This document shows, one piece after another, positions 1,653 through 5,464 of a stretch of 16,416 nt of DNA. The DNA lies in NCBI GenBank assembly GCA_005223125.1, contig NJBH01000055.1:1-16416 (forward strand), in the 5' to 3' direction. This DNA is from Promethearchaeota archaeon Loki_b32. GTDB lineage: Archaea > Asgardarchaeota > Lokiarchaeia > Sigyniarchaeales > SOKP01. Numbering within the stretch: the first letter of the stretch is position 1; each line of letters opens with the position of its first letter. A model generated the notes under the pieces. The model was given only the letters and a program-made list of their open reading frames with translations. It ran no database searches and had not been told where the DNA came from. The position numbers were made by a program, and so were the translations under genes.

Positions 1653-2708
1653 ATGACAACAGAGGTAAAAACTTTAGAAGATGTACGCAATATTGCTAGA
1701 GAAAAACTAAAAGGAATATGTGGAGTCTACAAAGATTGTGATGGAGATCCACGTAGACTTTGCCAAGGACAAGGCTATGGAAGATCTCTTGGTATTGGAG
1801 GAATTGGAAGTGGTGCCAGTTTTAATAATAATTTCTTAGCCCTAAGAAAATATAATTTGAAAATGAAATTAATTAATAAAGATTTTACATCTGATACTAA
1901 ATATAATTTCTTTGGGAAAGAATTATCCATGCCAATAATGGCTGCGAGTGTGGCAGGTGTTAATAGCTTTGGTGGAGATAAGGTTATAACAGAAGAAGAA
2001 TTTTGTCGTTCTGTAGTTCTTGGCTGTAGAGATGCAGAAACAATTGGGTGGAGAGGGGATACTTATACTTATTCATTTGAAAATTCTTATGGACTTAATG
2101 CTATTGCTGAAGCGGGAGGTTGGGGAGTCAAAATTGTGAAACCAAGAGACCAAGGAACAATAATGAAATTTTTTAATAAAGCTGAAGAAGTTAGATGTGT
2201 TTCTGTTGGTATAGATGTAGATGGTTGTGGTTCATATGCAATGGCTATGCATAATAAACCAGTTTTCAAAAAATCAATTGAAGAAATTAAGGAATTAATT
2301 TCTTCTACAAATCTTCCAGTAATTATTAAAGGGATAATGTGCGTTGAAGATGCTTTAATAGCAAAAGAAGCAGGAGCAGCAGCTATCGTTGTATCAAATC
2401 ATGGGGGAAGAGTTTTAGATCATACTCCTGGAACAGCTGAAGTTTTATCTAGAATTGTAGAAGAAACTAAAGGAAAGATTAAAATTATCGTTGATGGAGG
2501 TATCCGGACGGGATATGATGTGTTAAAAATGCTTGCACTTGGGGCTGAATCAGTTCTGATTGGTCGAGACATTATTCGGGCTTCAGTCGGAGCAGGAATT
2601 AAAGGCGTCCAGATACATATGGAATATATGCAAAAGACTTTGGCAAAGGCAATGAAAATGACGAATTGTAAGTCTTTAGAAGAAGTAACTTCAGATATTT
2701 TAGTTTAA
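1653..2708 (+). CDS. FMN-dependent alpha-hydroxy-acid oxidase/dehydrogenase (lactate/glycolate oxidase family) with N-terminal Cys motif
   Basis: Catalytic SNHGGR motif, PVIIKGI and DGGIRTGYDVLKMLALGA FMN motifs. Starts 16 nt after the fumC stop, with SD-like GAGGT at 1642-1646, so probably co-transcribed. Confidence 0.9.
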   Translation: MTTEVKTLEDVRNIAREKLKGICGVYKDCDGDPRRLCQGQGYGRSLGIGGIGSGASFNNNFLALRKYNLKMKLINKDFTSDTKYNFFGKELSMPIMAASVAGVNSFGGDKVITEEEFCRSVVLGCRDAETIGWRGDTYTYSFENSYGLNAIAEAGGWGVKIVKPRDQGTIMKFFNKAEEVRCVSVGIDVDGCGSYAMAMHNKPVFKKSIEEIKELISSTNLPVIIKGIMCVEDALIAKEAGAAAIVVSNHGGRVLDHTPGTAEVLSRIVEETKGKIKIIVDGGIRTGYDVLKMLALGAESVLIGRDIIRASVGAGIKGVQIHMEYMQKTLAKAMKMTNCKSLEEVTSDILV

Positions 2709-2742
2709 ACAATAATTGTTTTATATGAAAAATATAATGTTT

Positions 2743-2811
2743 TCCCAGCACCCTTGCAAGGCAGTCATTATGTACCTATCCTTTATGCACATAAATCATT
2801 CTTTTCTGGGA
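2743..2811 (-). promoter_or_regulatory. Eukaryote-type SECIS element in the 3' UTR of the selenoprotein gene
   Basis: Minus-strand RNA reads UCCCAG-AAAAGA-AUGAU-UUAUGUGC-AUAAAGGAUAG-GUACAUAA-UGAC-UGCCUUGCAAGGGUG-CUGGGA. This gives helix I (UCCCAG/CUGGGA), an AUGAU/UGAC core with tandem G.A pairs, an 8-bp helix II and an apical loop containing AAA. It begins 6 nt after the TAG. Folded by eye. Confidence 0.85.
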
Positions 2812-2817
2812 TAAAGA

Positions 2818-3333
2818 CTATAAATATTTGTTTATTGCTTCAATTATCAATTCTATTGATGGTCTATCTTCTTTTGTACCAATATATTGCCAAACTACAT
2901 GTCCTCCTTTATTGATGAGAAACTTAGAAGGTATTGCATGGCTTATTTGCAATTCATCATGCCCAGCACTTTTTCTGTCCAAGAAGACATGATAAGCTTT
3001 ACTTAATCTTCCAGCACGATCAGTGATAAATTGTATTTTAAAATTATTCTTATATTTCATCTTTATTAACTTATCAGGGAGATCTATAGCAATTGCAATT
3101 AGTTTAATATTTAATTCTTTTAATTTTGATAAATTTTCAGTCAAGTATGCAAGATGTCTTTTACAGTGGATTCACCAACTTCCTCTGAAAAAATCAAGTA
3201 AAACTCCATTATATTTTTCTAATAATCTAATTAAATTAACCTTATCGCCATCAATATCTTCTGTGTCAATCATTGGAGCTTTAGTACCTAATTGTAAACC
3301 TTTATTCGGAGTTGAAATATGTAAGTCGGTCAT
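2818..3333 (-). CDS. Peroxiredoxin-like (AhpC/TSA, thioredoxin-fold) selenoprotein, 171 aa, Sec at codon 54 (TGA at 3172-3174) in a UxxC motif
   Basis: Manual translation from ATG 3333: MTDLHISTPNKGLQLGTKAPMIDTEDIDGDKVNLIRLLEKYNGVLLDFFRGSW-U-IHCKRHLAYLTENLSKLKELNIKLIAIAID...AIPSKFLINKGGHVVWQYIG. It runs in frame into the supplied 2818..3144 ORF, and the TGA sits at the first Cys position of the FxRGxWCxxC motif. Confidence 0.9.
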
Positions 3334-3481
3334 AAATGAATTATTAATTTTTAATAATTTAAAGAATTAGTTTTTAGATCATAATTTTTAATTCATTCTT
3401 AGGAATCATAAGTTTTATATTTTAATGGGATGTAATATCAAATTAATTAGTAATAAAGTCCTTTTATAAAGATGCTTAAAT

Positions 3482-5464
3482 ATGAAGGATATCTCTAAAT
3501 TTATTGATGATGTACTAAATGAAGTTAGTGGAAAATATGCCTTTGATTGGGTATCGAAGATATCGCAATATAATCGAGTTGTAGGGTCCCAAGATTATCA
3601 TGAAATTATAGAAAGAGTAATGAAAGAATTGGTATCTTATGGTTTAGATGAGATTAAACTCCATAAATACCCTGCAGATGGAAAGACTAAAACATGGGAA
3701 TGGATAGTAACTCAAAGTTGGGAGATTACATCAGGGGAATTAAGCTTAATAGAGCCAAAAAAAGAAATCTTATGTCGATTTCAGGATATTCCTATGTGTG
3801 TTTTAGGAAGATCAAAGGGTTGTGATTTGACCGCAGAGTTAATAGACGTTGGGAAAGGTGTTAAAGAAGAAGAATTTGAAGGATTAGATGTTGAAGGTAA
3901 AATTATTTTAATAGAAGCTCCAAGAATCATAGTTCCTACATTATATGCAGAAAAAGGAGCATTAGGAGTTATAGTATATCCCAGTTCAGTTCGAGCGGGA
4001 GGTAACAAAGGCATGACTATTTATAATAGGTTTCCTGCTATAGCTGAAGATTTAGAAAAAACAACTTTTGGTTTTAGTATTACTTTTGAGCAAGGATTGT
4101 ACTTAAAAGAATTGTTAAAAAAGGGACCTGTTAAGCTATATGCTAAGATTGACGCTAAAATTTATGATGGAGAATTAGAAGTAATTTCTGCCGCTATTCG
4201 AGGGACAGAAAAACCTCATGAAGAGATTATTCTAACAGCGCATATTTGTCACCCTGCTGCGGGAGTAAACGATAATGCTAGTGGATCCGCAGGATTGTTA
4301 GAATTAGCACGTTCACTTACAGCACTCATAAAGCAAAACATATTGCAACCCCCTAAACGGACAATAAGATTTCTTTGGGTTCCTGAGTTTCATGGAACAT
4401 TTCCTTGGGTTAAGGAACACGAACATATTGTTAAGAATGCACTTTTTAACATTAATTTAGATATGATAGGGGAACACCCCTTAAAAATTGGGAATCCCTG
4501 TTATATTTGTCTTGGACCTTATTCAAGACCTTCAATTTTAAATGATATAATTCAATATTTCACGAGGATAATAGCAGATCACCCTAAGGGTGTAGCAATA
4601 AATGGCACACAAATGCAGATGCGATATCGGATAGTTCCCTATTCAGGTGGGAGCGATCATGGTGTATTTGTAGCGCGACCTATAGGCATTCCTGGTATTA
4701 TGATTGGACATGAAGATCCCTTTTGGCATAGTTCCCTTGACACAATAGAAAAGTGTGATTCTACAGAATTAAAGCGTGTAATTGCTATTGCTCTTTGCAC
4801 TAGTTATATCTTTTCAATACAAAATAAGGATACTTTAATATCTATATGGCCAATTATAGAAGGAATTTTTTACCAGCGACTTGGTAAAGCAAAAGAAATG
4901 ATACTCTCTCTTTATAACAAACTCAATCAAGAAACTACAACATCTTTAATTTCAAAAGATGAAATTACTTTAATGGGAAAAACTCTAATAAATACATTTG
5001 TCAATTATGAAAAATCCATATTGGATTCAGTAAAACAACTTGATTCATTATCACCAATAATTGAAGAGTTATTTTTTGAAAAAGTTAAAGAATTAGAAGA
5101 ATTAAAGAAAAATCTTTTCTCTTACTGGAATAAATTATGTAAACATGCGTCTATTGACATTAATCTTATTGAAGAACCAGATCATTTTAAACAAAAATGG
5201 GTTTTAAATTTTGTAGGGAGAAGGAATTTGAAATATTTTATACCAATTCTACTCTCAAGTGTGTATGAGAAGTTCAAAGTTCCAGAACCACCAGATGTTT
5301 GGGGAGGTGATGCCCAAGAAATGATAAATTTTATAGGATTATCTTTAAGTCTTAAGGAGATCTGTGCTATATTAACTTTAGAGTTTCAACATTTATTTTA
5401 TCCAAGTATAGTTCTTAATTTTGCGAAATTATTAGAAGAAAATGGCTTTATGAAAAAAGCTTAA
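3482..5464 (+). CDS. M28-family metallopeptidase with PA domain (DUF4910-like) and helical C-terminal extension
   Basis: TAHICH, GVNDNASG, WVPE, INLDMIG, GGSDH and WHSSLDT motifs, plus a PA-like insert (DVGKG...DVEGKIILI...GALGVIVY). Confidence 0.8.
   Translation: MKDISKFIDDVLNEVSGKYAFDWVSKISQYNRVVGSQDYHEIIERVMKELVSYGLDEIKLHKYPADGKTKTWEWIVTQSWEITSGELSLIEPKKEILCRFQDIPMCVLGRSKGCDLTAELIDVGKGVKEEEFEGLDVEGKIILIEAPRIIVPTLYAEKGALGVIVYPSSVRAGGNKGMTIYNRFPAIAEDLEKTTFGFSITFEQGLYLKELLKKGPVKLYAKIDAKIYDGELEVISAAIRGTEKPHEEIILTAHICHPAAGVNDNASGSAGLLELARSLTALIKQNILQPPKRTIRFLWVPEFHGTFPWVKEHEHIVKNALFNINLDMIGEHPLKIGNPCYICLGPYSRPSILNDIIQYFTRIIADHPKGVAINGTQMQMRYRIVPYSGGSDHGVFVARPIGIPGIMIGHEDPFWHSSLDTIEKCDSTELKRVIAIALCTSYIFSIQNKDTLISIWPIIEGIFYQRLGKAKEMILSLYNKLNQETTTSLISKDEITLMGKTLINTFVNYEKSILDSVKQLDSLSPIIEELFFEKVKELEELKKNLFSYWNKLCKHASIDINLIEEPDHFKQKWVLNFVGRRNLKYFIPILLSSVYEKFKVPEPPDVWGGDAQEMINFIGLSLSLKEICAILTLEFQHLFYPSIVLNFAKLLEENGFMKKA

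Follow-up and report, generated by a model that had tools for sequence, protein, structure and literature searches.

The DNA window analyzed here is a stretch of 16,416 nucleotides from the genome of Promethearchaeota archaeon Loki_b32 (assembly GCA_005223125.1, contig NJBH01000055.1), and positions given without a contig label refer to it. When the minus strand was read over 2600-4200, an open reading frame running from 3333 to 2818 was found to be broken only at a TGA (3174-3172). Translation of that codon as selenocysteine (Sec, U) yields a 171-aa Prx-like (PrxL) protein, which starts at ATG 3333, ends at a TAG stop (2820-2818), and matches the Pfam families AhpC-TSA (6e-19) and Redoxin (4.5e-11). 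The in-frame UGA is codon 54 and takes the first Cys position of the CxxC box, giving the redox box W-U-I-H-C (U54-x-x-C57). The gene converges with that of an FMN-dependent dehydrogenase on the plus strand (1653-2708), and the 109-nt spacer between the two (2709-2817) is filled nearly whole by the RNA element at 2743-2811 of the minus strand, which is the subject of this study. There is no T5 run after the dehydrogenase gene on the plus strand before the complement of the element, and antisense read-through is therefore possible.

Homologs of PrxL are present in 89 of 151 genomes of the order. Essentially every full-length homolog contains one to three in-frame TGA codons, and in nearly all of the 100-plus homologs a TGA stands at the redox-box position. 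No full-length homolog without a TGA was found in the order, where the sole TGA-less match was a fragment of 98 aa from which the redox box is missing. The orthologous loci belong to Promethearchaeota/Promethearchaeia MAGs; in the NCBI taxonomy Promethearchaeia, as Lokiarchaeia are now called there, is a class of Archaea within the kingdom Promethearchaeati. Standard gene-calling programs report two ORFs, of 53 and 108 aa, in place of the one gene, as though the gene were a pseudogene or translation ended at codon 54, and the UGA might also be read as a residue other than Sec, in which cases the hairpin behind the gene would be irrelevant to coding. Such explanations are, however, very improbable because the frame remains open and conserved to either side of the TGA (in six relatives the identity over residues 1-171 is 80-89%, and in a seventh it is 81% over residues 1-142), the TGA coincides exactly with the first residue of the redox box, and the genome encodes a complete Sec machinery. 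Moreover, the protein has already been catalogued as a selenoprotein, letter for letter with X at the Sec position, as Lokiarchaeia_GCA_005223125_U_3 in the supplement to Huang, Xiao, and Zhang (2024, PMC11227280), in which the genome is labelled Lokiarchaeia and two other PrxL paralogs of the same genome adjoin the entry.

The Sec machinery of the genome includes SepSecS (486 bits), a PSTK-like gene, a SelB/EFsec candidate situated 5 kb from SepSecS (C57:33846-34880), and two SelD genes, each with an in-frame TGA. BLAST with the tRNA-Sec of the closest relative located a tRNA-Sec gene with the anticodon UCA in the loop CUUCAAA; it lies at C57:28507-28655(-), and SepSecS follows 83 nt downstream. 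Set against a congeneric tRNA-Sec of 89 nt, the gene contains two insertions of ~25-30 nt, in the regions of the D arm and the T arm, which are probably introns. These two insertions explain why neither the Rfam model RF01852, with none over its cut-off in this genome, nor ARAGORN detected the gene, whereas the Rfam tRNA-Sec model finds matches in 15 of 21 relatives.

The element begins 6 nt after the TAG with helix I, formed by UCCCAG (2811-2806) and CUGGGA (2748-2743). The 5' internal loop AAAAGA (2805-2800), whose GA just before AUGA is nearly invariant across elements (alignments A2 and A3), leads into the 5' side of the SECIS core (2799-2795), composed of AUGA, located 18 nt after the stop and 373 nt downstream of the UGA, and of U2795, which is the N of the UGAN/NGAN quartet. 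Helix II pairs UUAUGUGC (2794-2787) with GUACAUAA (2775-2768) over 8 bp including one G.U (G2788.U2774), and encloses the 11-nt apical loop AUAAAGGAUAG (2786-2776), which has A at four of its first five positions and AG at its end. The 3' side of the core follows at 2767-2764 (U2767 as the N, G2766, A2765, and C2764), and between this and the 3' strand of helix I a mini-hairpin, GCCUU-GCA-AGGGU (2762-2750), appears as a third arm in both the minimum free energy (MFE) and the centroid fold. RNAfold likewise returns helices I and II in both of these folds. Just 3' of the element lies a U5 run (2732-2728), likely an archaeal oligo-U terminator. The first-pass annotation of this DNA had placed helix I 6 nt after the TAG and had described AUGAU opposite UGAC, an 8-bp helix II with one G.U, and an 11-nt loop containing AAA, with the core about 370 nt downstream of the UGA, and every one of these coordinates was borne out by our reading, measurement, and folding. 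Its two-helix anatomy was nevertheless incomplete, as the third arm was overlooked.

ATGA is invariant in all ten elements of this genome that were compared, and among 33 elements the A, G, and A of the AUGA are invariant and the T nearly so; on the 3' side of the core, the A and C are invariant and the G nearly so (A in two). In the apical loop of the same 33 elements, positions 3-5 (AAA) and the final G do not vary.

Could such a structure be merely a chance hairpin in an AT-rich intergenic spacer? The folding energy is ordinary when compared with that of shuffled sequences (z = -0.83, with 42 of 200 shuffles at least as stable), and because it is not unusual, the case against chance rests on comparison. 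A scan of the whole genome (4.13 Mb, 29.9% GC) with a loose descriptor gave 50 hits; about 40 of these are unrelated, which by itself would favor chance, and ten have an A-rich loop ending in AG. All ten of the latter start ~20 nt or less from, or overlap, the stop codon of an ORF with an in-frame TGA, and these ORFs encode three PrxL proteins, HdrA, two VhuD-like proteins, two copies of a small protein with adjacent Sec residues ("UU"), an 81-aa product, and a 116-aa product. A 46-nt core covariance model (R1) gave 11 hits genome-wide at 37-55 bits, against noise below 23 bits, and the eleventh lies behind a third UU paralog, again an ORF with an in-frame TGA. Another covariance model (R3) was built from 31 elements located behind non-orthologous genes of this and other genomes, and its training set contained neither the element in the window nor its seven orthologs. 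Although blind to them, R3 scored 2735-2815(-) at 73.0 bits, with an E-value of 5.7e-16 in the 16.4-kb window with filters off, where the runner-up reached 11 bits; in the genome-wide search the E-value of the element was 1.4e-13. In all 28 loci of relatives that were searched, an element lies directly 3' of PrxL on the same strand (R1 scores of 32.6-47.9 bits). Given this blind recognition and the retention of the element, with compensatory changes, in all orthologs, a chance origin is hardly conceivable.

The compensatory changes were counted in a model-based alignment of 39 elements, which are mostly from PrxL genes. It replaced MAFFT, which had wrongly matched elements from different genes and had shifted helix I from its proper columns. 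Changes on both sides were found at all six pairs of helix I, which is 95.5% paired, and at all nine pairs of helix II when the position next to its eight covarying pairs is included, and 90.7% of cells overall are paired, compared with 39-54% when the partners are slid; these figures err on the generous side, since the alignment had been fitted to the model and the elements share common descent. Covariation, which the first-pass annotation had named as a check, is seen in both helices. In 20 of the 39 elements a non-standard combination occupies the first "pair" of helix II, as expected for the N.N of the UGAN/NGAN quartet. In the element of the window, the nine stem positions 2795-2787/2775-2767 include one mismatch, U2795.U2767, and the one G.U. 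Because the first position is the N.N of the quartet, the "8 bp" of the first-pass annotation and the "9 bp" of Mariotti et al. (2016, PMC4989117) describe the same stem.

Equal presence behind Cys orthologs would have spoken against a role in Sec decoding. No match above 11 bits was obtained for two distant homologs of the Cys type, which come from other families in the phylum, so the expected absence holds as far as these go, but the Sec-versus-Cys comparison is thin because there are no Cys orthologs within the order. The better control is the genome-wide search, in which the strong hits are confined to UGA-containing genes.

These features can be set against the published classes of SECIS. 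In Mariotti et al. (PMC4989117), lokiSECIS elements are described from PrxL, VhuU, and HdrA-VhuD genes as lying close behind the stop codon, with AUGA just before a 9-bp stem and GA just after it, and with an 11-nt apical loop that favors A in its first five positions and closes with an ultraconserved G, in most cases after an A. The Asgard type I eSECIS-like model of Huang et al., which generalizes lokiSECIS and is the major form for prxL, allows a stem of 7-15 bp with at most two mismatches, a loop of 8-20 nt, and GA or AA after the stem (PMC11227280). The element in the window shows every feature so published, including the PrxL host gene and the Lokiarchaeia host: its position in the 3' UTR, the AUGA and GA flanks, the sizes of stem and loop, the loop composition, and the Asgard genome encoding Sec machinery all agree, as does the score with model R3. 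As far as those descriptions extend, nothing essential differs, the loop starting with AUAAA rather than AAAAA and the first stem position being U.U. We therefore consider, with high confidence, that 2743-2811(-) is the SECIS of the PrxL selenoprotein gene at 3333-2818(-) and a typical lokiSECIS, or Asgard type I eSECIS-like element in the terms of Huang et al. The appeal of the first-pass annotation to the lokiarchaeal precedent of Mariotti et al. was correct (PMC4989117).

With the eukaryotic type I SECIS the element shares the 3'-UTR position, helix I, the internal loop, the AUGA_GA quartet, helix II, and the unpaired apical adenosines. It differs from the eukaryotic form, which is read by SBP2, in that no SBP2-like protein was found in this genome, in having an extra hairpin on the 3' strand of the internal loop, and in the length of helix II, which is 8-9 here against ~11-13 bp there. 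The first-pass annotation was right in calling helix II shorter than the eukaryotic one, but nine positions including the N.N pair are the norm for lokiSECIS, not an oddity; similarly, it located the element correctly in the 3' UTR but overstated the surprise of finding it behind a prokaryotic gene, as 3'-UTR SECIS are normal for archaea. No match to the Rfam SECIS families was obtained with cmscan, either in the window at the gathering score or in 2600-3400 at E <= 10, and this agrees with the statement of Mariotti et al. (PMC4989117) that Loki genes escape the standard SECIS tools. The SECIS of methanogens is similar in its 3'-UTR location and in having a kink-turn-like core presumed to be read without SBP2, and methanogen VhuD variants carry AUGA and GAC as the present element does, according to the same paper (PMC4989117). 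Unlike the methanogen type, the element has no GAA/A bulge and no G-C clamps, and its upper stem is long and AU-rich rather than short and G/C-rich. A bacterial SECIS was ruled out since no hairpin is found in the coding sequence directly 3' of the UGA, the 76 nt from the UGA onward having an MFE of -5.1 kcal/mol (z = +1.0). The element is thus distinct from both the bacterial and the methanogen types, as had been claimed.

Several other loci of the genome were noted in the course of these searches. Three paralogous small proteins with adjacent Sec-Sec (HADUUAD/SGCUUEK) are encoded at C24:226455-227234 (-) and C32:57481-57527 (+), each with its own lokiSECIS 8 nt after the stop. Two further lokiSECIS, scored at 63-66 bits by R3, lie at C70:14667-14748 (+), behind the 81-aa ORF, which has a hydrophobic N-terminal stretch and the motif NEGG-U-AC, and at C11:35649-35726 (+), behind the 116-aa ORF with DDDDCF-U-HRIYG; both ORFs are outside the five widespread Asgard selenoprotein families. 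Weaker R3 matches were obtained at C41:17218-17299 (+) (34.9 bits), with a 10-bp helix II, behind a VhuU-like small ORF (FDCULSCAAH) that follows a NiFe-hydrogenase large subunit, and, as a doubtful case, at C22:33567-33646 (-) (32.8 bits), behind an ORF with one TGA. The SelD/SPS genes are arranged in tandem at C16:9888-12420 (+), and right after the second stop there is no more than a weak 14-bit core match, which fits the published divergent (type II) SPS lokiSECIS.

The third arm deserves separate consideration. A counterpart of the hairpin at 2762-2750 is present in 11 of 12 MFE folds of the elements of this genome, and the arm is common to all the folded selenoprotein families with type I elements there, with the mini-hairpin found also at C3:11740-11760, C36:18985-19005, C50:19350-19370, and C24:226460-226485. 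Its sequence varies by gene family, as CCUU/AGGG, CCC/GGG, UGG/CCA, or AUAGGA/UCCUAU. In the 39 mostly PrxL elements the arm hardly varies in its CC/GG core and is paired in 86.6% of cells, while changes on both sides occur at only three of five pairs, in few sequences. A test against shuffles of the 22 nt that follow the GA in the elements of this genome gave a combined p of ~2e-7, a value to be read with the dependence among paralogs and the overlap of the segment with helix I in mind. At the level of predicted secondary structure, the third arm would turn the element into a three-way junction. Kink-turns elaborated into three-way junctions have reportedly been named k-junctions by the Lilley laboratory. 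In a k-junction the non-bulged strand carries the third helix at a point between the G.A pairs and the C helix, and the arm at 2762-2750 is placed in the same way, a likeness of secondary-structure topology only. The main texts of the two papers that define the class, in the parts available, describe the core, the upper stem, the loop, and a generic lower stem and do not mention a side hairpin (PMC4989117, PMC11227280), and our literature search found no paper joining SECIS with a three-way junction for Asgard archaea. It is a tentative idea, and one we think more likely wrong than right, that the side hairpin is a functional third arm, making the Asgard SECIS k-junction-like, serving as a determinant for its reader, and being lost toward the two-helix eukaryotic SECIS.

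In 35 of the 39 elements a run of T5 or longer follows helix I at a distance of no more than 40 nt, whereas such a run occurs in 20% of random 45-nt windows of the genome. The U5 run behind the present element would be in keeping with oligo-U termination as in archaea, the 3' UTR being short and closing right behind the SECIS; a scan for bacterial-type terminators found none, and such a scan is irrelevant to archaea. The same U runs might, however, suggest that the element is a conserved 3'-UTR structure with another job, such as termination, stability, or regulation through a kink-turn that binds L7Ae, and that recoding is directed otherwise. L7Ae does bind kink-turns in archaeal mRNAs (reference 33 of PMC11881835), and a lokiarchaeal SECIS was not functional when placed in Methanococcus maripaludis (Peiter and Rother, 2025, PMC11881835), although the failure may simply mean that the heterologous host lacks the reader. 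Such another job seems quite unlikely, considering that the element is found genome-wide only behind ORFs with an in-frame TGA, belonging to at least seven unrelated protein families, that no alternative signal was found and the region past the UGA is without a hairpin, and that the invariant AUGA/GA core and A-rich loop are specifically SECIS features.

If the element is indeed the SECIS of PrxL, its action can be envisaged as follows. The mRNA would end at the U run 2732-2728, which would leave the element within a 3' UTR of ~90 nt. Judging from the sequence signature, AUGA(U) and (U)GA would supply the quartet of tandem sheared G.A/A.G pairs in a kink-turn between helices I and II. A recognition factor, for which EFsec itself or a small L7Ae-family protein is a candidate, would bind this core together with the A-rich loop at the apex and probably also with the side hairpin. 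That factor would bring EFsec with Sec-tRNA(UCA) to the ribosome with the UGA at 3174-3172 in its A site, and the UxxC redox center would be produced. A point against the scheme is that, besides the missing SBP2-like protein, PF01248 (L7Ae) matches in the genome only in two small ORFs of 125 and 129 aa; the two L7Ae-family proteins are located at C25:11265-11501 and C3:31621-31899. The absence of SBP2 has been reported before (Mariotti et al., 2016, PMC4989117; PMC11881835), and the first-pass annotation had left the reading protein open, as does the literature, which in the same sources names none. According to the literature, Sec insertion has not been demonstrated experimentally for any lokiSECIS, and the class is a bioinformatic construct.

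Because the class was published in 2016 and the protein was catalogued in 2024, in a genome whose selenoproteome is thereby in print, the present element represents a correct rediscovery and no new kind of thing; its exact sequence string was not found in the supplements to Huang et al. that were searched, Table S4 aside (PMC11227280). The RNA class to which it belongs links archaeal and eukaryotic selenocysteine decoding and is of biological importance for that reason. The locus offers a clean example of the class, in which helix I, core, helix II, loop, third arm, and terminator are contained within 90 nt, and an element so delimited could be used as a substrate for finding the Asgard SECIS-binding factor.
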